A DNA stretch of 64,000 bases, from the NCBI GenBank assembly GCA_965224715.1, contig OZ245054.1:2004334-2068333 (forward strand). The letters run 5' to 3'. Of this stretch, positions 48,008-58,717 are shown piece by piece. A program made the position numbers and the translations under genes. The notes under the pieces were generated by a model. It saw only the letters and a list, made by a program, of their open reading frames with translations. It was not told the DNA's origin and did not search any database. Positions within the stretch are counted from its first letter, which is position 1. Each line of letters begins with the position of its first letter. Origin of the DNA: Spirochaetota bacterium (GTDB lineage: Bacteria > Spirochaetota > UBA12135 > COTS27 > CAXSBA01).

Positions 48008-51000
48008 TCACGCTGCTCTATTCAACAACTGAATATAAATTTCTTCCGTCTTCTTTGCAATATCTTCCTGACTATATGCAGGGTCCGGAAGCCCTGTATT
48101 TTCGTCATATAGGAAATTATGTATTGCCGTCTTAATACTTGCCTTGGTGGCCTCTGTCGCTTTCCAGTCAGTCATTCGAGACATAATTTCTTTGAGTTTG
48201 GCTAATAGTTCTACAGCTACCTTTTTAATTTTCTTGATTTCTTCCTTGTTTAATGTTTGCTTGTTCAGCAAGTCAAAAATAAATAAACTATCCTGGTCAG
48301 GCAGCTCTTCACGGATATGCCGTTTCTCCTCTCTATCCAGGTCACCGTAAAACTTCAATAATTCCTCGAAAGTTTTCTCGATTGTCAATCTATCCTTTTC
48401 CTTGTTGTAATCCTTTATCAAATCTTGATAATGTTGCTGAAAATCAGTACGGAGTGGGTTTTGTTTCATCATCTCAGCTAGCTTAGAGTCGATGACTGAT
48501 TTCAGATTTTGAACAGTGGTGTTTTTTTTACTAGACTTTTTAAACTCCTGACGTAATCGTTCAAAATCTATCTTGGAAATATTATAAAGATGCCCATCAC
48601 CCTCATAACTATCTCTAATCTCAATGGCATCATCAATAATGCCGTGCAGTTCCTTAATAATCTCAGAAATGTCTGCATTGTTTCGGTCACTCATAAGACT
48701 TCTATAAATGATATTTAGCACGTCATAATCGTGGCGGTAATTATTTACCTGAGGTTTGATATTGATGCAGGCCTTGAACTTCTTGAATACCTCACGGCAC
48801 ATTATCTCAAAACGTTTGCGGGTCTGGTCGTTCTGATTAACGGCTTCCTTTGTGTTATCAATGGCCTTATTTCGCTCAAAGCCAGTGAACTTATTGATTT
48901 CGTCCAGTTCGACATTATTCTCTTTCAGGAATGCTTTGATAAATGCAATTCCCTCTGCTAAGTCTGCGATCAAGTATTCTTCAGCAGGTTTAATCGGATT
49001 AACCTCCGGACCACCGCCACCTTCATGTCCAGCAAAAGTAGCCAAGGCTTTTCTCAGATTTTTCAGGATACCGCAGTAATCCACAATAAGCCCATTGTTT
49101 TTGCCTTCATTAACACGGTTGGCTCTTGCTATGGCTTGCATCAGCGTATGAGCTTTTAGAGGTTTGTCTAGATAAAGGGTGGATAAACTTTTCACATCGA
49201 AACCTGTAAGCCACATAGCACAAACAAAAACAACTCTTAGGGGGTGTTCTGTATTCTTAAAGGCACTTTCCATATCTATCCGTTCACCGCCTGGTACATC
49301 AAATCCATTAAGTAGTCTTTCTCTATGTTTCTCAATACTCACATCCCACTTGGCGAATTTCTCTACCTCGCCTTGCTCTTCTGATACCACTACTGACATA
49401 ATCGTTTCTTCCATCCAGGCAATTTGCCGTTCTCGGAAAACCATTTCTTCTGGTTCAGTTATTTTTCGTTCAGTGGTTTTTAGATTTTCAATTTTTTTCT
49501 TCCATTCCTCTTGTACAACATCATACATCCGAACACAGGTGACTTTATCTATACACACAAACATTGCTTTGCCACTTTCCCAGGCTGTAGAATAATGCTC
49601 CACAAAGTCTTTGGCAATCTGCCGTAGACGTTTTTCAGCGGTGATGATATGGTAGTCTCTCCGCAATTCTTTTTCTAATTTCTCGGTAGTGTTAATATCC
49701 TCCACTTCCAGTTCAGCGAGTTTCTCTGCTATTCTCTCGTTAAGGCCATCGGTAGTAATGCGGAGTTTCTCTCCTCTGGCATCATAATAGAGAGGAACTG
49801 TTGCTCCATCTTCAACTGCTCGTTGAAAATCGTAAGTAGAGATATAATCCCCAAACACATCTTTGGTCACTTCATCCTCACCCTTGAATAGAGGTGTTCC
49901 TGTAAAGCCAATATAACTGGCGTTAGGAATAGCATTTCTCATATTAAGAGACAGCCGGCCATATTGAGTACGGTGGGCTTCGTCTGAGATAACGATAATA
50001 TCCTCTCTCTCAGAATACGGTTTGGACGGGTCAATATCTTTGTTAAATTTCTGAATGAGAGTAAATACAAAGGCTTTATGCTGAGACAGTAAGTCCGTTA
50101 AATGTTTTCCACTGGCTGCACGACACTCATCTTTATCATTATCCACAAGCTCACATCCGGCAAAGGTTTTATAAATCTGGGTATCCAGGTCGTCCCGGTC
50201 GGTCAACACCAAGAAGGTATAATTTCCGCCCAATTTGCGGTGAATCTTACGGGTAAAAAACACCATACTGTACGATTTCCCGCTACCCTGAGTATGCCAA
50301 AAGACTCCCAGTTTTCCTTTCCGTTCTTTACGCTCTTTTACGGCTTCAATGGCCTTATTTACCCCCAGGAACTGCTGGTTCTGAGCGACAATCTTGGTCA
50401 GGCTCCGACTGCTATTATCAAAAAGAATAAAGTTTTCAACTATATCAATCAGATTAGCTTTGGTACAAATACCGTTTAACAGGGTTTCCATATTCACAAC
50501 GCCCCTGTCTTCCTCTTTTAATCGTTTCCATTCTCTAAAAAATTTGAAAGGAGAAGAGAAGGGGCCTACCACCGCTTCAATGCCATTTCCCAGAATACAG
50601 AGAGCATTGTGATGAAAGAGTTGGGGACTCCGTTCTTTATAGGTAACTAGATTTTCTTCATAGGCTGCCTGTACGCTTTTGTGAACATTTTTAAGTTCCA
50701 TAAACACCAAGGGAATACCATTAACAAATCCGATAACATCAGCCCGACGGCGACCAAGGGGACCATGTATCCAAAATTCTCGCACACAAAGGAAATGATT
50801 GTTTTCCGGATTGGAATAATCGATAAGTTTTAGTTTCTGTTTTTCCTGTTCTCCTTTGTCGTTTTTGAATGTTACTTGGACACCGTCTTTAAGGAGTTCG
50901 TATTTTTCCCGGTTTATTTGGAGAAGTGATTGTGTTGTGGAATATTCAGTGATTGTACGGATAGCGTCATCATAGGCGGTTTCTGGAATGTTTGGATTAA

Positions 51001-51184
51001 ATTTCGCCAGTGCTTCTCGGAGATAGCGGGTTAATACAACTTCCAGATTATTTCCCCTACCAAGGAGGCTTTCTTTTCCAAAATCTTCATTGTTATAAGC
51101 CAATACATTTTCCCAGCCAAGTTGTTTCTCTAAGTAATCGGCTGTGGTGGTTTGAACTAAGTTATCTTCTGTGAATAGGTTCAT
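48008..51184 (-). CDS. hsdR: Type I restriction enzyme, R subunit
   Basis: 1058 aa. N-terminal nuclease region, SF2 helicase motifs (HTQGSGKS, VISDEAHRTQ, QAIARANR) and a C-terminal DUF3387-like tail (DSLFIFDLL). Confidence 0.95.
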   Translation of the reverse strand: MNLFTEDNLVQTTTADYLEKQLGWENVLAYNNEDFGKESLLGRGNNLEVVLTRYLREALAKFNPNIPETAYDDAIRTITEYSTTQSLLQINREKYELLKDGVQVTFKNDKGEQEKQKLKLIDYSNPENNHFLCVREFWIHGPLGRRRADVIGFVNGIPLVFMELKNVHKSVQAAYEENLVTYKERSPQLFHHNALCILGNGIEAVVGPFSSPFKFFREWKRLKEEDRGVVNMETLLNGICTKANLIDIVENFILFDNSSRSLTKIVAQNQQFLGVNKAIEAVKERKERKGKLGVFWHTQGSGKSYSMVFFTRKIHRKLGGNYTFLVLTDRDDLDTQIYKTFAGCELVDNDKDECRAASGKHLTDLLSQHKAFVFTLIQKFNKDIDPSKPYSEREDIIVISDEAHRTQYGRLSLNMRNAIPNASYIGFTGTPLFKGEDEVTKDVFGDYISTYDFQRAVEDGATVPLYYDARGEKLRITTDGLNERIAEKLAELEVEDINTTEKLEKELRRDYHIITAEKRLRQIAKDFVEHYSTAWESGKAMFVCIDKVTCVRMYDVVQEEWKKKIENLKTTERKITEPEEMVFRERQIAWMEETIMSVVVSEEQGEVEKFAKWDVSIEKHRERLLNGFDVPGGERIDMESAFKNTEHPLRVVFVCAMWLTGFDVKSLSTLYLDKPLKAHTLMQAIARANRVNEGKNNGLIVDYCGILKNLRKALATFAGHEGGGGPEVNPIKPAEEYLIADLAEGIAFIKAFLKENNVELDEINKFTGFERNKAIDNTKEAVNQNDQTRKRFEIMCREVFKKFKACINIKPQVNNYRHDYDVLNIIYRSLMSDRNNADISEIIKELHGIIDDAIEIRDSYEGDGHLYNISKIDFERLRQEFKKSSKKNTTVQNLKSVIDSKLAEMMKQNPLRTDFQQHYQDLIKDYNKEKDRLTIEKTFEELLKFYGDLDREEKRHIREELPDQDSLFIFDLLNKQTLNKEEIKKIKKVAVELLAKLKEIMSRMTDWKATEATKASIKTAIHNFLYDENTGLPDPAYSQEDIAKKTEEIYIQLLNRAA

Positions 51185-51353
51185 TTTTTTTCTTCGCTAA
51201 TCAACGAAAACTCTTTATTTCCATTATATCAACATTTTAAAAAGGATGTGTGTTTTTTGATAACCATTGCAATGAAATCACATATGAACATCGATAAACA
51301 TGGATGATGGGATGTCAATAAGCATAACTTTAGAGACAAAACCTTTTGCCCAT

Positions 51354-51366
51354 CGTATTATAACAT
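51354..51366 (-). promoter_or_regulatory. Candidate extended -10 promoter (TGTTATAAT) upstream of hsdR
   Basis: The minus strand reads ATGTTATAATACG. The 13-mer CGTATTATAACAT (plus strand) recurs exactly at 52230-52242 upstream of the HNH gene. No good -35 element is seen. Confidence 0.4.
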
Positions 51367-51504
51367 GGTAGAAGTAGAGCCGCAGAAAGCACAAAAAAAA
51401 TGCAGAGGAGAGGAATTGAAAGGATTAACCGCAATCGATACGCAAATGACGAATGGTTTATAAAAATAAGAGATTAAAGTTGTAATCGCAGAGAATGCAG
51501 AGTT

Positions 51505-52137
51505 CTATTCAGAACAAGATTTCTTTATTTTTTGAACAGCTTTTTTTTCTTCATTATCCATTTTTAAATCATATTTGTTTTTAATATTTATCCATAAATC
51601 AGCATATTGACAAATAAAGCTTTCTTGAGGCAACCAATGAGCTATATCTTTAGCGCCTTTGCTTCGATTAGCTTTCTTAAATACTGCCAGCAAATTTTCA
51701 TGATCGTTGGCAAATTCCTTTTTTTGTTTCTTAGTCCAATTCTTTCCACCAGATAAGTAAGCCTCTTTAAGAGGGACAACATGATCGATGTCAAGATCAC
51801 TGCTCTTGTAATAATATTTTTTTGTATAAAACCCCCACCATTTACCTGACAAAACTTTACACTTTTTCTTAGTTTTAAAAGTTACGGGAATTTCACTAGA
51901 AGCAATAAGTATTTCATGGCGTTCATTTTGACAATCTCCATCATCATCAATCCAATGTCTCCAGTTTTTGCGGTTGTATTTTTCATTAGCTTTTTTTTGA
52001 GGTGATACAATACTCTCATTATGATAATGATATGAGCCATCCATATAATGACCCCCATATTTATCAGTTCTTCCTGAATGAGAAAAGCTAAACCAACAAA
52101 TGGCGATCAATATAATGACTGTTTTTTTTAACTTCAA
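51505..52137 (-). CDS. Secreted YHYH-motif / DUF1524 (His-Me finger, HNH-like) nuclease
   Basis: Signal peptide (VIILIAICWFSFSHS), GGHY...YHYH motif, WRHWIDDDGDCQNERHEIL, and the DUF1524 catalytic block DIDHVVPLKEAYLSGG...FANDHENLLAV...ANRSKG. Confidence 0.8.
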   Translation of the reverse strand: MKLKKTVIILIAICWFSFSHSGRTDKYGGHYMDGSYHYHNESIVSPQKKANEKYNRKNWRHWIDDDGDCQNERHEILIASSEIPVTFKTKKKCKVLSGKWWGFYTKKYYYKSSDLDIDHVVPLKEAYLSGGKNWTKKQKKEFANDHENLLAVFKKANRSKGAKDIAHWLPQESFICQYADLWINIKNKYDLKMDNEEKKAVQKIKKSCSE

Positions 52138-52229
52138 TCTACTATAATAAAGTTATAACCACAAAACCATTACATGGTCGAGGTGCTAATAAGCACAACT
52201 TTGGAGACAAAAATTTTTACCATCCCTAT

Positions 52230-52242
52230 CGTATTATAACAT
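52230..52242 (-). promoter_or_regulatory. Candidate extended -10 promoter (TGTTATAAT) upstream of the HNH/DUF1524 gene
   Basis: Second exact copy of CGTATTATAACAT, embedded in a ~110-bp direct repeat shared with the hsdR upstream region. Confidence 0.4.
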
Positions 52243-52314
52243 AGCGGAAATGGAATCGCAGAGGGCACAGAGACCGCAAAGAAGAGAAACCGAAAAAATT
52301 ATCGCCTGATTATT

Positions 52315-52476
52315 TCATCTTCTGTACGAATCCGTCAAGTCTTTGCTTGCACAGTAGTTAAATTCGAATCTATTTCTTCCTCTTTCTTTCTCGTCTGGAC
52401 TACCAATGAAACAAACACCATCATCTAAATCGTACTCTAATCCTTTGTCTGGAGTAGGATTAACAGTAGTATTCAT
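52315..52476 (-). CDS. Hypothetical small protein (53 aa, below the ORF-track cutoff)
   Basis: Hand translation gives MNTTVNPTPDKGLEYDLDDGVCFIGSPDEKERGRNRFEFNYCASKDLTDSYRR. It has an ATG start and a TGA stop. It lies 58 nt downstream of the 61-aa ORF on the same strand. No family was recognised. Confidence 0.3.
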   Translation of the reverse strand: MNTTVNPTPDKGLEYDLDDGVCFIGSPDEKERGRNRFEFNYCASKDLTDSYRR

Positions 52477-52534
52477 TAAAAAAGAACCTTGAACATAAAA
52501 ACGAGGGTGTAATTCTTTTGGCTTGTTTCTTTTA

Positions 52535-52720
52535 CTATTTCTTTTTATATCCTAATTTTTCTAATTCGTTATAAATAAACTTATGAGTCATGTTATTATG
52601 CTCTTTACATAAATCCTTTAAGGCTTGTTTTACTCCTGATGAATTTGTGTATTGATTTACAACATAGTTGCGTTCATGTTTTTCTGAACAGTTAAAATAT
52701 TCCCAATCTGATTTAGACAT
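52535..52720 (-). CDS. Hypothetical small protein (61 aa)
   Basis: ATG preceded by a strong SD (TAAGGAGGATTTTATG on the minus strand), with a TTGACT hexamer further upstream. No family was confidently recognised. Confidence 0.5.
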   Translation of the reverse strand: MSKSDWEYFNCSEKHERNYVVNQYTNSSGVKQALKDLCKEHNNMTHKFIYNELEKLGYKKK

Positions 52721-53025
52721 AAAATCCTCCTTATATTCTACATAATAATGGTATCATACTATCTTATGAAAAGTCAAGTTTTTTAGTTTTCTTGTGCTGA
52801 ATTCAAGGGGCAAATGAACAGTAAATAAAAAGAGGAACATTCCTATACGATTGTTAATAAACCCAAATCAAAGGAAGTCCCTACGGATAGTGTATCACAA
52901 TCGTATTCTCATATTCCCTGACCCGTTTAATCCATAAATAAGATTAGTTTTCTTATCGGTTTCCAAAGAAGTAGATTCTTTGTAACTGGCTATGTTATTT
53001 ATTGTAATTTTTGTTATTATTTCGC

Positions 53026-54228
53026 TCATACCTGAACATCTCCATTCATAAGTTTAGGCAATAGCAAATCTCTTAATAATTTTAGGTTTTGGTTTTTCTT
53101 AACAAGTATTTTGGTCTGAGCCAATGTGATAGAAACAAATTCATTGAATAATAAAACAAACTTCTTCTTTGGAATTAGAATATCCATTCCACGAAAAGCT
53201 GTTTTATTTATTTCTTTAAAAGTGGTACCACCAGCATTTGAAATGATTTCATACTTTCTAAACATTAAATTGTATAAAAAATACCATCGAAAATGTTCAT
53301 CATTTGGTATCAATGATATAAATCCCTGATTTGTACAACACGGATTATCGAAAATCCCAAAAAATCCAATTGAAGCACGACTGGTCATAAGGATAGTATT
53401 CTTTGGTAACATTTTCGCGCTACTTTTTTGAAGCCCCAGAGGAGTTATTTTTCTATCTGAGCCAAGAAGTATGAGACTATTATTATTAGTTAAGTCTTTG
53501 GGTACAAACCACTCTATTACCCCATTATCCCAAAACTCTGACTTGGAAGTTGAAGGGGTGCCACCTCCAATACATTCACACACCTCCCCCAGCGTCCTCC
53601 TCTCCCATCCCTCGGGTATCCCGTCCACAATCTTTACCTTCTCGTGCCCGGGAAACTTGAACCGCACAAACCACTCCTTATACAAATGCCGTGCCGCCTG
53701 TTCCAACAGAGCAATACGGCGGTTGTTGTTTTCAATCAGGTCATCGTAGGCGGAGAGGATGTCGGCAATACGTTTTTGGGTGGGGAGGGGGGGGAGAGCA
53801 ATTTTAATATCGGCTATAGCCTCCTTTTGGGCACGTTGGCGGCCAGAAGCACCAACCATACTTTTTATCGCAGGTCTAGTAATTGTCTCACTTTTAGAAA
53901 GATAATATAAATAGTGATTATCTATCTTCTTTTCTTTTGGTCTAAAAACGATATACTCAGTTGACCCAAAAGCACCAGTTGTTTCCAACTTTGGTACAAA
54001 TGCAATTTTGCCGTGCTCTAAACAAGGAGTAATTCTGGCAAAAATTATGTCATTCTCGCAGAACCGTGCCCCACCACCTTTTAGTGTACGCTGGCCTTTG
54101 GGGTACACATTCTTTTTTTCAGGATTGACATCCTCCATAGGAATAAAATCATAGTTTTCCCCTTTTATTAAAGGTACTTTTGGATTTATTTGTACAATTT
54201 CATCAAATCGGTAAATTTTCATACTCAC
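53026..54228 (-). CDS. hsdS: Type I restriction enzyme, S (specificity) subunit
   Basis: 400 aa. Two target-recognition domains are separated by the conserved central helix (LPPLPTQKRIADILSAYDDLIENNNRRIALLEQAARHLYKEWF). A C-terminal conserved helix is also present (LLRDLLLPKLMNGDV). GTG (54228) or ATG (54222) start behind GGGAGGTGGTGGA. Confidence 0.9.
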   Translation of the reverse strand: MSMKIYRFDEIVQINPKVPLIKGENYDFIPMEDVNPEKKNVYPKGQRTLKGGGARFCENDIIFARITPCLEHGKIAFVPKLETTGAFGSTEYIVFRPKEKKIDNHYLYYLSKSETITRPAIKSMVGASGRQRAQKEAIADIKIALPPLPTQKRIADILSAYDDLIENNNRRIALLEQAARHLYKEWFVRFKFPGHEKVKIVDGIPEGWERRTLGEVCECIGGGTPSTSKSEFWDNGVIEWFVPKDLTNNNSLILLGSDRKITPLGLQKSSAKMLPKNTILMTSRASIGFFGIFDNPCCTNQGFISLIPNDEHFRWYFLYNLMFRKYEIISNAGGTTFKEINKTAFRGMDILIPKKKFVLLFNEFVSITLAQTKILVKKNQNLKLLRDLLLPKLMNGDVQV

Positions 54229-56236
54229 TCCACCACCTCCCAGTGTCCACCTTTCGCAATTCCTATCATTTCAATTTTTTCATGCTTTCTATTTTATAAC
54301 CGCAGAGGACCTGAGATCGCAGAAAAGTATAACTCCGCGCTCCTCCGTGCTCTCCGCGGTTTATTTTCTTCACTCCATCACCTCCCAGTATCCACCTTTC
54401 GCAATTCCAATCCACTTCAATTTTTCCATGCAGAGGACGCTGAGATCGCAGAGAAATGTAACTCCGCGTTCCTCCGTGCTCTCCGCGGTTTATTTTCTTC
54501 ACTCCATCACCTCCCAGTATCCGCTTTTCGCAATTCCTATCATTTCAATTTTGTAACCGCAGAGGACCTGAGATCGCAGAGAAGTATAGCTCCGCGTTAC
54601 TCTGTGCTCTCCGCGGTTTATTTTCTTCACTCCATCACCTCCCAGTATCCGCTTTTCGCAATTCCTATCATTTCAATTTTGTAACCGCAGAGGACCTGAG
54701 ATCGCAGAAAAGTATAACTCCGCGTTCCTCCGCGCTCTCCGCGGTTTATTTTCTTTCATTCCACCACCTCCCAGTGTCCACCTTTCGCAATTCCTATCAT
54801 TTCAATTTTTTCATGCTTTCTATTTTATAACCGCAGAGGACGCTGAGATCGCAGAGAAGTATAACTCCGCGTTCCTCCGTGCTCTCCGCGGTTTATTTTC
54901 TTTCATTCCACCACCTCCCAGTGTCCACCTTCGCAATTCCTATCATTTCAATTTTGTAACCGCAGAGGACGCTGAGATCGCAGAGAAGTATAACTCCGCG
55001 TTCCTCCGTGCTCTCCGCGGTTTATTTTCTTTCATTCCACCACCTCCCAGTGTCCACCTTCGCAATTCCTATCATTTCAATTTTTTCATGCTTTCTATTT
55101 TATAACCGCAGAGGACCTGAGATCGCAGAAAAGTATAACTCCGCGTTCCTCCGCGCTCTCCGCGGTTTATTTTCTTTCATTCCACCACCTCCCAGTGTCC
55201 ACCTTTCGCAATTCCTATCATTTCAATTTTTTCATGCTTTCTATTTTATAACCGCAGAGGACCTGAGATCGCAGAAAAGTATAACTCCGCGTTCCTCCGT
55301 GCTCTCCGCGGTTTATTTTCTTCACTCCATCACCTCCCAGTATCCACCTTCGCAATTCCAATCCACTTCAATCTTTCTATTTTATAACCGCAGAGGACGC
55401 TGAGATCGCAGAAAAATGTAACTCCGCGCTCCTCTGTGCTCTCCGCGGTTTATTTTCTTCACTCCAACACCTCCCAGTGTCCACCTTTCGCAATTCCAAT
55501 CCACTTCAATTTTTCCATGCTTTCTATTTTATAACCGCAGAGGACGCTGAGATCGCAGAAAAATGTAACTCCGCGTTCCTCCGTGCTCTCCGCGGTTTAT
55601 TTTCTTTCACTCCACCACCTCCCAGTATCCGCTTTTCGCAATTCCAATCCACTTCAATCTTTCTATTTTATAACCGCAGAGGACGCTGAGATCGCAGAAA
55701 AATGTAACTCCGCGTTCCTCCGTGCTCTCCGCGGTTTATTTTCTTTCATTCCACCACCTCCCAGTATCCGCTTTTCACAATTCCTATCATTTCAATTTTG
55801 TAACCGCAGAGGACGCTGAGATCGCAAAGAAATGTAACTCCGCGCTCCTCCGTGCTCTCCGCGGTTTATTTTCTTCACTCCATCACCTCCCAGTGTCCGC
55901 TTTTCGCAATTCCTATCATTTCAATTTTGTAACCGCAGAGGACGCTGAGATCGCAAAGAAATGTAACTCCGCGCTCCTCCGTGCTCTCCGCGGTTTATTT
56001 TCTTCACTCCAACACCTCCCAGTATCCGCCTTTCGCAATTCCAATCCACTTCAATTTTGTAACCGCAGAGGACGCTGAGATCGCAGAGAAGTATAACTCC
56101 GCGCTCCTCTGTGCTCTCCGCGGTTTATTTTCTTCACTCCAACACCTCCCAGTATCCGCCTTTCGCAATTCCTATCATTTCAATTTTTCCATGCTTTCTA
56201 TTTTATAACCGCAGAGGACGCTGAGATTGCAGAGGA
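54225..56236. repeat. Tandem array of 14 full + 1 partial hairpin-containing units (period 128-147 bp) between the GxxExxY gene and hsdS
   Basis: The core AACCGCAGAGGAC(G)CTGAGATCGCAGA.AA.T.TAACTCCGCG.TCCTC.G.GCTCTCCGCGGTT recurs 14 times. One copy (~54431) lacks the leading AACCG. The partial 15th unit starts at 56207. Core starts are 54298, ~54431, 54555, 54683, 54829, 54958, 55104, 55250, 55386, 55533, 55672, 55802, 55931 and 56061. Cores alternate with mosaic linker variants. Confidence 0.95.
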
Positions 56237-56617
56237 TTCTTGTAAGTTATTCACCAATCTTTTTATTCCATTTTTCACTTTGAGCGTATTGAAATTAATA
56301 ATTAGGCCAACTTGTAGATTTTTAATTTTAAGATAATTAAGTAATTGTGCTTCATCAATGTTCGTTAATTCTTTTACAGCTTTACACTCAATGATTACTT
56401 TATTCTCTACGAAAAAATCACAACGAAAACCTACATCCAGTTTCAATCCCTTGTATTTAATAGGCATTTCATATTCTTTTAAATAGGAAAGCCCTGCTAT
56501 ATCCATCTCTTTCGCCAATGCAGATTGGTAAACACTTTCAAGGAATCCACAACCAAGCTCCTTGTGGACTTCAATTGCACAGCTAATAATTTTTTCAGTT
56601 ATCTTGTTTATTTCCAT
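56198..56617 (-). CDS. GxxExxY protein (PD-(D/E)XK-like, PDDEXK_3 family)
   Basis: 139 aa with the eponymous motif in GCGFLESVYQSAL and a nuclease-like core (DFFVENKVIIECKAV). The last 11 codons (SAISASSAVIK) are encoded by repeat-array sequence. Confidence 0.85.
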   Translation of the reverse strand: MEINKITEKIISCAIEVHKELGCGFLESVYQSALAKEMDIAGLSYLKEYEMPIKYKGLKLDVGFRCDFFVENKVIIECKAVKELTNIDEAQLLNYLKIKNLQVGLIINFNTLKVKNGIKRLVNNLQESSAISASSAVIK

Positions 56618-56618
56618 A

Positions 56619-56644
56619 ACTCCCTCTGCGTTTCTCTGTGGTTA
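56619..56644 (-). repeat. Left inverted-repeat arm of the GxxExxY cassette (also supplies its SD)
   Basis: The minus strand reads TAACCACAGAGAAACGCAGAGGGAGTTATG. It starts at the hsdM stop codon. It is complementary in pattern to CCTCTGCAATCTCAGCGTCCTCTGCGGTT at the gene's 3' end (56207-56236). Confidence 0.6.
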
Positions 56645-58717
56645 TATCCCCAGTTCCTCAAAGTTTTTCTGGATTTTTTCGGCCAACACGACCGCTTCCT
56701 CATTAAGACCTTTTAACTCAGTATGAATTTCTCGCATTGTTTCTTCAAAATCAAAATCCTCGTCTTCCTCCTCAGGGGCAACGCCAACATACCTTCCAGG
56801 AGTAAGGCTCCAGTCATTTTTTTCGATTTCCGCTTTATCGACCAGTTTGCACAGACCTTCGACGTCTTGGTACTCTCCCTCCGGGAACCGCTCCAGCAGC
56901 CAGTTAGACTGCTTATGGAAATAGCGAACCTGTTTCAGGGTATTTATAAGCTCTTTCCGTTCCTCATCCAGGGCTTTCAGATTTTTAAGGATTTCTTTAC
57001 CATCCCAGGTATCGCTCTGTCTGGCTTTATATTCACCTTCTGCTACTTCAAGGTTTTTCTGAATGAGTTTAAACAGTAGGTCTATAGACTTTACTATGTC
57101 ACGGCTTTGTTCGGCAACAGGTTTCCACTCACCAGACAATCCCGATAGTTTTTTAATCTCCGCACCACCAGACTTCTTTTTACTTAACAAGGTAACCTGT
57201 TCGTTAAACGCACTTACATCACCGGACACAGTATCCAGAGCCTCGTTTAGTTCCTTGAACTGTTCCTGATGTTCCTCGGATAGTGACTGTTTACCAAGAA
57301 AGGCTTTAAGCGGTTTTACGATTTTATCCAGGGAATCCCGGAATTGTCCCAGAGGAGTAGCACAATCCAGTGCTGCCCCACAGGTTTTTGCAAGATAATC
57401 ACTTACCAGCGAAGCAAAGCGGTCATTCTCTTTTCGATATAGCCAGACTATGGAAGTAAGGCTTTTCTGCTGCTCAGGAGAAAAATCATAAATTACCCGT
57501 GTTACTTTGCGGTGAACATTACGGGCATCTATCATTAAGACCTTGTCGTTATTCGTCTTGGCTTTATCCAGAAACCATAATTCACAGGGAACGGTTCGTG
57601 TGTAAAAGAACCCTCCCCGAATAGCCATCATACAGTCAACGTGTCCAGTCTCAACCAGTTTACGGCGGACTTCTGCTTCCTTGTTTCCGGCACTGGAAGC
57701 CTGACTGGACATGACAAATCCACTTCGTCCCTTTTCACTTAGGTAGGAATAAAAATATGAAATCCACAGGTAGTTTCCATTGGATACTTTTTCTTTTTTG
57801 TTTACTCCAGGGAGACCAAACGGAAGCCTTGGGTCATTCTTTATTTTGTCCGCGTCCACCTCATCCACGTTAAAGGGAGGATTAGCCATTACATAATTTG
57901 CCTTCCCAATAAGTTCGTGGGGGTCTTCATAATACGATATTGCTTTTTGTATATTCCCCTCTAGTCCGTGAACAGCCAGGTTCATTTTGGCTAGACGAAT
58001 GGTAGTTGGGTTTTTCTCCATTCCATAAAATACGACCCTCTCGGAGGGACTTTGGTTATGGGCTTCAATAAAGTGAGCTGATTGAACAAACATCCCACCG
58101 GAGCCACAGGCGGGGTCAAGTACCTTTCCGTTTTCTGGTTCAATGACATTGACAATCATCTGGACGATTGATTGTGGGGTAAAAAACTCTCCGCCGTCAT
58201 GGGCTTTCAGACCAGCAAAACCAGTCAGAAAATACTCATAAATTCTACCGAATACATCTCCGTCGGCAGATTCCAGCGCGGGGTCATTGAAGGTTCTAAG
58301 CAGGTTCCCCAGGACATCATTATCGAGTTCCTGGTATTCACTTTTGGGAAGAACACCTTTCAGACCATCATAGTCGGTCTCGATACTTTCCATAGCATCG
58401 ATAATGGCTTTAGCTCTATCTTGCTCTGATGGTAATGACACAAGGTATTCAAACTGTGCCTTTTCCTGTAAGTACAAAGCACTCTTTCTAGCAAAGTCTT
58501 CTTTGGTTAATTCACGTGTTTTTCCACCACGGCTGGGGAGCGTTTTTACGATTTCTTCTTTAATCATCAAAAAACGGCTATAGGCATGACGTAGGAAAAT
58601 AAGCCCCATTACAGGCAGGAAGTATTCATTAGCGGCAAAGTTTGAGTTTGCCCGTAGGTTATCCGCACTCGACCAGAGGCGTTTTTCAATTTGTTCGATA
58701 TTTTCGAGTTGGCTCAT
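56642..58717 (-). CDS. hsdM: Type I restriction enzyme, M subunit (N6-adenine DNA methyltransferase)
   Basis: 691 aa. HsdM N-terminal domain, SAM-binding DPACGSGGM, catalytic NPPF (VMANPPFNV) and a long coiled-coil C-terminal extension ending in SLTPGRYVG. Confidence 0.95.
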   Translation of the reverse strand: MSQLENIEQIEKRLWSSADNLRANSNFAANEYFLPVMGLIFLRHAYSRFLMIKEEIVKTLPSRGGKTRELTKEDFARKSALYLQEKAQFEYLVSLPSEQDRAKAIIDAMESIETDYDGLKGVLPKSEYQELDNDVLGNLLRTFNDPALESADGDVFGRIYEYFLTGFAGLKAHDGGEFFTPQSIVQMIVNVIEPENGKVLDPACGSGGMFVQSAHFIEAHNQSPSERVVFYGMEKNPTTIRLAKMNLAVHGLEGNIQKAISYYEDPHELIGKANYVMANPPFNVDEVDADKIKNDPRLPFGLPGVNKKEKVSNGNYLWISYFYSYLSEKGRSGFVMSSQASSAGNKEAEVRRKLVETGHVDCMMAIRGGFFYTRTVPCELWFLDKAKTNNDKVLMIDARNVHRKVTRVIYDFSPEQQKSLTSIVWLYRKENDRFASLVSDYLAKTCGAALDCATPLGQFRDSLDKIVKPLKAFLGKQSLSEEHQEQFKELNEALDTVSGDVSAFNEQVTLLSKKKSGGAEIKKLSGLSGEWKPVAEQSRDIVKSIDLLFKLIQKNLEVAEGEYKARQSDTWDGKEILKNLKALDEERKELINTLKQVRYFHKQSNWLLERFPEGEYQDVEGLCKLVDKAEIEKNDWSLTPGRYVGVAPEEEDEDFDFEETMREIHTELKGLNEEAVVLAEKIQKNFEELGI

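Follow-up and report, generated by a model that had tools for sequence, protein, structure and literature searches.

Inverted repeats of heptamers as partners of GxxExxY nuclease-family genes: a gene-carrying cassette and a gene-less array in a Spirochaetota type I restriction-modification locus

Introduction

Why should a small gene for a nuclease-like protein lie between the two arms of an inverted repeat that also stands beside it, without any gene, in 14 tandem copies? The question is raised by a 64,000-nucleotide stretch of DNA from a Spirochaetota bacterium (GenBank assembly GCA_965224715.1, contig OZ245054.1, positions 2,004,334 to 2,068,333 of the forward strand), referred to below as the window, with coordinates counted from its first letter. 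The gene encodes a member of the GxxExxY (TIGR04256) or PDDEXK_3 (PF13366) family and belongs to a type I restriction-modification (RM) island that occupies 48–59 kb of the window on the minus strand. A first-pass annotation, made from the letters alone, had described the array units as empty versions of the cassette that carries the gene. It had likened the arrangement to the intervening sequences (IVSs) of 23S rRNA and to REPIN/RAYT systems, and had proposed an undescribed pairing of a nuclease with its own family of hairpin repeats. We report here that GxxExxY genes and inverted repeats of CRCNGAG heptamers form a specific and widespread physical partnership, in which the repeat occurs both empty and loaded with the gene. 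The GxxExxY/PDDEXK_3 family is large and functionally uncharacterized, and about half of its sampled members are now tied to one defined repeat; so precise a repeat is a candidate substrate and provides a testable hypothesis for a family of 'hypothetical proteins'.

Results

The cassette and the array units share both arms

On the minus strand the locus reads hsdM, left arm, GxxExxY/PDDEXK_3 gene, right arm, 14 tandem units, hsdS, small open reading frames (ORFs) and hsdR. An arm consists of three CRCNGAG heptamers at 9-nt spacing (CGCNGAG in the left arm, CTCNGCG in the right arm), with ACC/GGT at the outer ends. The palindrome formed by two arms ends in (A)ACC...GGT(T); the arms, being three direct heptamers, are not palindromic themselves. 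Each array core (64–65 nt) reads AACCGCGGAGAGCACGGAGGAACGCGGAG, then TTATACTT, then CTCTGCGATCTCAGCGTCCTCTGCGGTT, that is, an empty hairpin with left arm AACCGCGGAGAGCACGGAGGAACGCGGAG, an 8-nt loop and right arm CTCTGCGATCTCAGCGTCCTCTGCGGTT. Direct reading confirmed that the core is an imperfect palindrome, with 11 Watson–Crick pairs, two G–U pairs and two mismatches in the outer 15 positions.

In the cassette, the left arm AACCACAGAGAAACGCAGAGGGAG (56620..56643, minus strand; two CRCNGAG heptamers) and the right arm CCTCTGCAATCTCAGCGTCCTCTGCGGTT (56207..56235, minus strand; three CTCNGYG-type heptamers) bracket the 139-aa GxxExxY ORF (56198..56617, minus strand). The first-pass annotation was right that both arms of the array flank the gene and was off by 1–2 nt in placing them: the left arm overlaps the final two bases of the hsdM stop codon, and the true spacer between hsdM and the ATG is 56641..56618 (24 nt). 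The GGGAG at the 3′ end of this arm, 6 nt ahead of the ATG, is the ribosome-binding site. The right arm differs from the array right arm at two of 29 positions and is read as the protein tail SSAISASSAV.

L001, a metagenome contig of 2.5 Mb, encodes the nearest relative of the window protein (P0001, 92% identity), as do three shorter contigs. The left arm of the window cassette is shortened to two heptamers; the orthologous arm in L001, AACCGCGGAGAGCGCAGAGGGTAGCAGAG, has three and is nearly the array left arm, so the gene-carrying and gene-less forms share both arms, and the array units are indeed gene-less versions of the cassette. The right arms of the window and of L001 are 93% identical over 30 nt, and the flanking coding DNA about 80% (hsdM likewise about 80% at the nucleotide level).

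A stable closing stem is also predicted. For the array cores, the folding energies are −27 to −34 kcal/mol (z −3.4 to −5.2) on the minus strand and −19 to −27 kcal/mol on the plus strand, and the predicted fold of the whole cassette as RNA closes with a stem of left and right arm both in the window and in L001. Gene-less hairpins elsewhere consist of the same two arms joined by a loop of 8–60 nt. Rfam gave no match, either at a permissive threshold for positions 51000–57000 of the window or at the gathering threshold for 16 hairpin loci. The sense (minus) strand has no U-tract, the cores being followed by AUAAAAU or ACAAAAU, and thus shows no intrinsic terminator. On the antisense (plus) strand of 54229–56125, every array unit ends in CCG(T/C)GCTCTCCGCGG, followed by the T-rich TTTATTTTCT; of 16 terminator-like sites for antisense transcription, 14 fall at array units (4.5 expected). 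Within the 64-kb window, no cluster of at least two heptamers at 8–11-nt spacing occurs outside the RM locus, and the clustering of heptamers at this locus is not due to chance.

The association of gene and repeat is general

With an alignment of the family we collected 80 metagenomic GxxExxY loci. Under a strict definition, heptamer clusters lie at the gene ends in 37 of the 80 loci, compared with about two to three expected from their density elsewhere in the same loci (our own estimate). They are found at most 120 nt upstream in 28 loci, at or after the 3′ end in 33 and on both sides in 24; the arm order is reversed in one of these 24 and is otherwise left arm upstream, right arm downstream. 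Elsewhere in the 270 kb of these loci there are 27 clusters, mostly arrays adjoining the gene. With the relaxed motif CRCNGAG/CTCNGYG, the number of distinct cassettes rises to 43–45.

The same partnership emerges when the search starts from the repeat. We scanned one genome per GTDB species for the right-arm 20-mer TCTCAGCGNNCTCTGCGGTT, which occurs in at least 120 GTDB stretches, with about 17 expected by chance (own calculation). Five of these at least 120 loci hold a GxxExxY ORF: in three (L092, L118 and L124) the gene is enclosed by a left and a right arm of its own, and in two (L051 and L011) an arm or hairpin lies within about 150 nt of its 5′ end. The generality that the first-pass annotation had left to a genome-wide search is therefore found from the gene side and from the repeat side.

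The left-to-right gaps between arms are bimodal, being either up to 60 nt (46 pairs, empty) or 351–700 nt (29 pairs). All 29 pairs of the longer class enclose GxxExxY, three of them in loci picked by the repeat alone, and 27 of 35 arm-bracketed ORFs are GxxExxY; the remainder are mostly spurious and no other family stood out. Because a hairpin reads left arm, loop, right arm on both strands, the strong order bias indicates that the genes sit in loops and not between hairpins. The innermost heptamer of the left arm doubles as the ribosome-binding site, and about half of the cassettes have no more than some 10 nt between this arm and the start codon. The stop codon comes just before the right arm in 31 of 43 cassettes and 4–54 nt past it in the other 12, among them the window cassette. 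Reading through the right arm accounts for the odd low-complexity tails (SAxSAxSAV, RSQRTQR, AExAE) found on a subset of GxxExxY homologues and, more broadly, on many annotated proteins.

Two variations on this layout were noted. One sub-family (L139:309–385, L140:2412–2503, L171:32–132 and L176:1413–1500), with CACNGAG arms and proteins starting MD(I/V)(N/D)…, has a leader of 75–100 nt between left arm and ATG. This leader contains a 13-bp hairpin with the loop GGGAGAYA, several pairs of which are kept through two-sided changes among the four sequences, and a second small hairpin; it may be a cis-regulatory element. The other concerns the read-through proteins P0317 and P0337, in which TTE(N/D)TE.TE, a segment of about 150 aa without a Pfam match and an arm-like serine-rich stretch (SVTSVSSVV in P0317) precede the GxxExxY domain. 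The segment looks like a second ORF directly 5′ of the GxxExxY gene and is bracketed, at least in P0317, by CACAGAG-type arms.

The repeat is found across phyla and in viral contigs

Among the GTDB matches listed are sequences of Acidobacteriota, Chloroflexota, Planctomycetota, Verrucomicrobiota, Bacteroidota, Cyanobacteria, Gemmatimonadota, Desulfobacterota and other groups; they include single metagenome-assembled genomes with several copies as well as cultured isolates, such as Pedobacter miscanthi RS10, Idiomarina aquatica SN-14 and Microcoleus spp. They contain 124 right arms, of which 49 have a matching left arm at up to 150 nt, nine at 151–1500 nt and one further away; 64 have no left arm at a stringent score, and one, too near the contig end, was left unscored. 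At short range, left-then-right pairs outnumber right-then-left pairs by 59 to 13. In IMG/VR, 75 stretches carry the right-arm 20-mer. One putative viral genome, IMGVR_UViG_3300028648_000006 (L227, L245, L222 and L266; 43 kb, 64–67% GC), has at least 13 heptamer clusters, mostly solo left arms with a few hairpins, and no GxxExxY gene.

Judged from these matches, the repeat is a cross-phylum family, mostly gene-less and not private to one gene or genome. This modifies the earlier proposal of a nuclease paired with its own repeats. Nothing equivalent to the gene–repeat element was found in Rfam 15 or in the searchable literature (a scope that stops short of curators' notes and subscription papers), and the recurrence of cassettes and gene-less hairpins in many phyla points to a pairing not described before. 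Among prokaryotic repeats it is unusual for the DNA sequence itself to be conserved across Spirochaetota, Acidobacteriota, Chloroflexota, Planctomycetota, Bacteroidota, Cyanobacteria and the contigs of phages.

The GxxExxY/PDDEXK_3 protein

The window ORF matches TIGR04256 (GxxExxY) with an E-value of 9.8e-43 (145.2 bits, cut-off 35) and PF13366 (PDDEXK_3) with 2.1e-41 (141.4 bits, cut-off 22), and these are its only matches in Pfam and NCBIfam. The nuclease domain covers residues 5–122; the last 17 or so residues (123–139) lie beyond it, are encoded by sequence that runs through the right arm and, by prediction, form a disordered tail. Among 30 sequences including the window ORF, Gly24, Glu27, Tyr30, Asp67 and Lys79 are invariant and Glu77 is conserved in at least 90%. 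The AlphaFold2 model has an alpha–beta nuclease core (pLDDT of 88 overall, below 50 for residues 126–139), for which Foldseek returned weak, generic PD-(D/E)XK matches (Cas4, lambda exonuclease) and also weak ones to splicing endonucleases. As modelled, the fold is PD-(D/E)XK. A sequence search of the PDB found no relative of the protein, and PADLOC and PHROGs gave a weak Cas4 match (E 0.004) as sole result and no phage family.

The family comprises 32,750 clusters at 50% identity (E up to 1e-3), and its proteins are 55–69% identical across phyla. Of the best 150 family representatives, 20 are two-domain fusions with ordinary linkers, and such tandem fusions suggest that the enzyme is dimeric.

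Cassettes sit stably in operons

The neighbours of the cassettes are mostly co-directional (29 of 35 upstream genes and 29 of 37 downstream genes share the strand of the cassette), and the flanking genes usually begin or end within about 30 nt of the arms. Divergent gene pairs hold fewer elements between them (6 of 70) than the background of 19.5% would predict. At one junction, between genes of the MoxR-type AAA_3 and DUF58/vWA families, a GxxExxY cassette is present in seven contigs (L141, L153, L156, L179, L189, L199 and L203) with flanks that are 70–97% identical; the heptamer variants differ among these seven orthologues. One further cassette site lies in an O-antigen cluster. An association with type I RM systems as a general rule was considered and dropped, with type I RM neighbours at only two of 80 loci. 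In one locus with such neighbours, L194, the order is hsdS, five hairpins, the gene, two hairpins and hsdR.

In an all-against-all search of the flanks, the orthologous pairs were either loaded–loaded or empty–empty, with changes in copy number besides. Comparing the window with L001 gives a pN of 0.027, a pS of 0.74 (near saturation) and a pN/pS of 0.037; since pS is near saturation and pN low, the cassette is old at the RM site and its protein is constrained. The cassettes are thus housed inside operons and have kept fixed sites while their lineages diverged widely, with strong purifying selection acting on the protein.

The array as a local amplification

The array of 14 tandem units (128–147 bp each) spans 54229..56125 on the minus strand, as determined by Tandem Repeats Finder (TRF) and direct reading. 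TRF itself reports 54286–56187, with a period of 129, 14.1 copies and 81% matches, and we count 14 cores on the minus strand over 56125..54298, starting at 56125, 55995, 55866, 55736, 55597, 55450, 55313, 55167, 55022, 54893, 54746, 54618, 54490 and 54361. The spacers between cores are 63–82 nt long and are copies of one another, and the last of them runs into the start of hsdS (400 aa; 53026..54228, minus strand; PF01420, E 7.3e-50), whose 5′ leader is the very sequence repeated as array spacer.

The contigs that encode P0001 explain where the spacers come from. They read hsdM, left arm, gene, right arm, a 461-aa gene and hsdS, and have no array. The 461-aa gene, with SLFN_AlbA_2, HATPase_c_4 and wHTH domains, ends in ...KLKRIGGAKGGHWEVVE and a stop codon, overlapping the hsdS start. 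The array spacers encode ..KLK.IGIAKGGHWEVVE followed by a stop codon and match L001 11752–11805 at 81–84%. On this match, the spacers are the 3′ remnant (the last 55–70 nt or so) of an SLFN/AlbA_2–HATPase gene that is deleted in the window and intact in L001, and the array is therefore to be read as a local tandem amplification and not as a series of independent insertions. The first spacer (56126..56206, minus strand), a 3′ remnant of the same lost SLFN_AlbA_2–HATPase_c_4–wHTH gene, encodes ..IGIAKGGYWEVLE and a stop codon and terminates with an hsdS-type ribosome-binding site and GTG. Since the spacers are copies of each other and of a gene remnant and are not unique, a CRISPR array was rejected.

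The SLFN/AlbA_2–HATPase gene was deleted first, and the block of empty hairpin and remnant was then amplified to 14 copies, by slippage or unequal exchange between heptamer arms. Arms with adjacent sequence form tandems beside the gene in other loci as well: five left arms with a 62-nt period in L193, four right arms (96 nt) in L161 and three (117 nt) in L155. Arrays next to a GxxExxY gene are also present in L092 and L194. Among viral contigs, L217:2921–3083 and L260:726–888 have flanks 100% identical to those of L270:3146–3366, in which a 58-nt tandem duplication is added. This duplication, a very recent change of copy number inside the element, consists of a loop segment and two right-arm heptamers. 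From the recurrent arrays and the 58-nt duplication, we infer that slippage or unequal exchange between arms is recurrent and fast, which accounts for the 14 units of the window.

Substitution patterns in the arms

The arms pair at 87.5% Watson–Crick in 44 cassettes. In these, G–U pairs on the sense strand (40) are about as frequent as A–C mismatches (36; p = 0.73), and the 2-nt spacers between heptamers pair no better than when shuffled (0.51 versus 0.47 in empty hairpins, 0.53 versus 0.50 in loaded ones). By contrast with these spacers, the two arms agree strongly in heptamer variant: concordance at position 2 (G or A) is 0.95, where the null gives 0.53, and at the central N it is 0.75, where the null gives 0.54. 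The shared heptamer variants and the unpaired spacers mean that the conserved unit is the heptamer and not a continuous helix. Heptamer type is independent of the GC content of the flanks. The stronger sense-strand fold in the window is probably one inherited pattern of substitutions. Taken together, the substitution patterns point to an element at the level of DNA or motif rather than to a sense-strand RNA hairpin, and so lend no support to the RNase III processing that had been envisaged by analogy with IVSs.

Other features of the RM island

Upstream of the cassette, hsdM (56642..58717, minus strand) encodes a 691-aa type I RM methylase (PF02384 N6_Mtase, E 1.4e-78, and HsdM_N). The island ends with hsdR (48008..51184, minus strand; 1058 aa, TIGR00348, E 1.7e-148). 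Between hsdS and hsdR, a 210-aa ORF (51505–52137, minus strand) has a YHYH motif and a GmrSD_C (DUF1524-type HNH) domain and may be an extra nuclease or defence gene of the island. Immediately 3′ of hsdS lies a truncated 44-aa ORF (52895–53029, minus strand) similar to the N-terminal part of a P-loop ATPase (…LIYGLNGSGN…); taken with the loss of the SLFN/HATPase gene, it points to gene decay in the RM island.

Solo right-arm-type heptamers also occur here. The cluster TTTGCGGTCTCTGTGCCCTCTGCG (52250..52290, minus strand) lies 3′ of the small ORFs and is followed by a promoter-like segment that is repeated, and between the 210-aa ORF and hsdR there are two degenerate right-arm-type fragments (51380..51502, minus strand), along with a second copy of this promoter-like segment. 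In the direct repeat of about 80 nt (51317–51393 and 52188–52272, minus strand), a degenerate right-arm-type heptamer fragment is followed by conserved sequence that includes a perfect extended −10 box, TGTTATAAT; of its two copies, one lies 5′ of the 210-aa ORF and the other 5′ of hsdR. From their sequence, these repeats look like duplicated promoter modules attached to solo arms.

Discussion

What, then, could hold gene and repeat together? A nuclease of this kind would form a dimer or larger multimer where heptamers are arrayed, in its own flanks and in empty hairpins, and would cut at or near these arrays. Repair of the break would copy the gene into empty hairpins, in the manner of homing, and would also propagate or rearrange the repeats, in the manner of RAYTs, with the tandem arrays of arms and hairpins as by-products; for its transcription, the element would rely on the host operon. 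That the nuclease recognizes and cuts heptamer arrays, and thereby drives homing-like copying or RAYT-like propagation, is our tentative reading, drawn by analogy and in our judgement just short of an even chance. We are more doubtful of the wider proposal that heptamer hairpins and GxxExxY make up an unrecognized cross-phylum class of elements, in which a minimal nuclease reads arrays of 7-mers and copies itself or propagates hairpins by a mechanism distinct from those of HUH enzymes, DDE enzymes, serine/tyrosine recombinases and the known families of homing endonucleases; such a class has a real chance of existing, if a rather smaller one. If the nuclease does mobilize or home into hairpins, a very small gene would have a new means of persisting in operons, and the enzyme could serve as a compact nuclease specific for sequence arrays; the new class would also endow a family of over 30,000 protein clusters with a function. 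If it does not home, the repeat still needs an explanation.

Several results weigh against recognition and copying by the nuclease. Most hairpins have no GxxExxY gene nearby, and none was found by peptide-pattern scan and local HMM in 637 kb of hairpin-bearing viral contigs; conversely, about half of the sampled GxxExxY genes have no recognizable arms. Heptamer type is not related to how similar the proteins are (p = 0.44 by permutation). The loaded cassettes look old and immobile, the flank search, on a small sample, found no orthologous site that is empty in one genome and loaded in another, and direct-repeat matches at the borders of 132 elements are at chance level for k = 1–6, so that no target-site duplication is seen. 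Within the window, the repeat is confined to the RM locus. Much of this would suit an independent REP- or MITE-like repeat, kept by some other factor or by its own recombinogenicity, with a protein whose role is unrelated, for example in DNA repair or defence. GxxExxY would travel well in such a repeat since the left arm provides a ribosome-binding site and the arms insulate the gene in operons. The gene-less majority of hairpins, the viral contigs, the lack of a link between heptamer type and protein clade and the genes without arms all favour this explanation, as do the REP-like avoidance of divergent promoter regions and the vertical stability and purifying selection expected of a gene useful to its host. 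Yet the cargo is almost exclusively one family, which is unexpected of a generic carrier, heptamer and protein are both conserved across phyla, and the arrays of arms and hairpins cluster beside the gene. We consider it fairly unlikely that the gene is only carried along.

The two remaining explanations place the function in RNA or in the window alone. If the paired arms hid the ribosome-binding site, RNase III or a GxxExxY RNase could cut them, the cassette mRNA would be excised or regulated and the empty hairpins would serve as processing or stability elements. The co-orientation of cassettes in operons with arms that abut the neighbouring genes would fit, as would the minimum-free-energy and centroid folds, which close with an arm stem including the Shine–Dalgarno sequence, the 5–12 kcal/mol by which window cores are more stable on the sense strand, and the weak fold matches to splicing endonucleases. 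We nevertheless find such a cassette improbable: besides the equality of G–U and A–C and the 2-nt spacers that never covary, empty hairpins occur in both orientations and also in convergent intergenic regions, the active-site residues are those of metal-dependent DNases, and no Rfam family matches. Least probable of all, and to us very hard to credit, is that the 14-unit array was selected as a regulator of hsdS, a barrier of variable length or a stack of antisense terminators, with its likeness to the cassette incidental. Every unit does repeat the ribosome-binding site and start region of hsdS, the plus-strand TTTATTTTCT after each core resembles an antisense terminator, and the hairpin arrays of L194 also lie within a type I RM operon; but type I RM neighbours are rare among cassettes, the array is missing from related strains, arrays are also found at unrelated operons and the sense strand has no U-tract.

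Comparison with known systems

One candidate considered was an integron attC site. In attC sites, AAC/GTT triplets are found at the inner side of the R boxes. Here they are at the outer ends, the window ends GGTTATAA do not fit GTTRRRY and the cargo is a single family, and we therefore rejected this candidate. A link to four-helix-bundle proteins was also rejected, with no such gene among the small ORFs of the window or the arm-bracketed cargo.

The resemblance to 23S rRNA IVSs of the Leptospira and Coxiella type lies in a long stem round an optional small ORF, in forms with and without the ORF, and in a host transcript that continues on both sides. It does not extend to what defines an IVS: the present elements lie in mRNA operons or intergenic DNA, with no rRNA match in the Rfam scan of 51000–57000, their ORF is PF13366 and not the four-helix-bundle PF05635, and RNA-type covariation is absent. 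[quoted passage not shown] Unlike them, the heptamer elements show no target-site duplications, recognizable transposase family or insertion polymorphism, and the loaded copies, at their fixed sites, are ancient. BIME/REP arrays and Rickettsia palindromic elements differ in sequence and architecture and have neither a dedicated cargo gene nor this cross-phylum distribution, but they too form tandem palindromic clusters in operon junctions, with arms that are stop-free in all frames and often translated as protein tails.

REPs are short hairpins of 20–40 nt whose foot is a conserved GTAG or CGTC, and a REPIN is a pair of them in inverted orientation (PMC3733652). In its defining parts the likeness to REPIN/RAYT proposed by the first-pass annotation fails, since the enzyme is a PD-(D/E)XK nuclease of about 125 aa and not an HUH Y1 (IS200-like) tyrosine transposase, and the arm, three 7-mers at 9-nt spacing with outer ACC/GGT, is no GTAG/CGTC-tagged REP hairpin. 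Moreover, the motif is kept from phylum to phylum and is not lineage-specific, the gene is inside one hairpin, and protein and repeat variants show no visible co-divergence (p = 0.44). What the two do have in common is an enzyme gene flanked by inverted copies of a repeat that is also found in many gene-less copies, vertical stability of the gene under purifying selection, local arrays of repeats and avoidance of promoter regions. Homing endonuclease genes with a palindromic target, such as that of the PD-(D/E)XK enzyme I-Ssp6803I, differ in that their target is a unique host gene and not a multicopy repeat, in their association with an intron or intein, in a cleavage that is here only proposed, and in the polymorphism of empty and occupied forms at one site, which was not found here. 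They share with the present cassettes a small, multimeric nuclease (multimeric, in our case, as judged from the fusions) and the arrangement itself: when occupied, a left half-site, the nuclease gene and a right half-site, and when empty, an uninterrupted palindrome. By these analogies, the locus behaves most like a REPIN/RAYT system or like a homing endonuclease gene in a palindromic, multicopy target.

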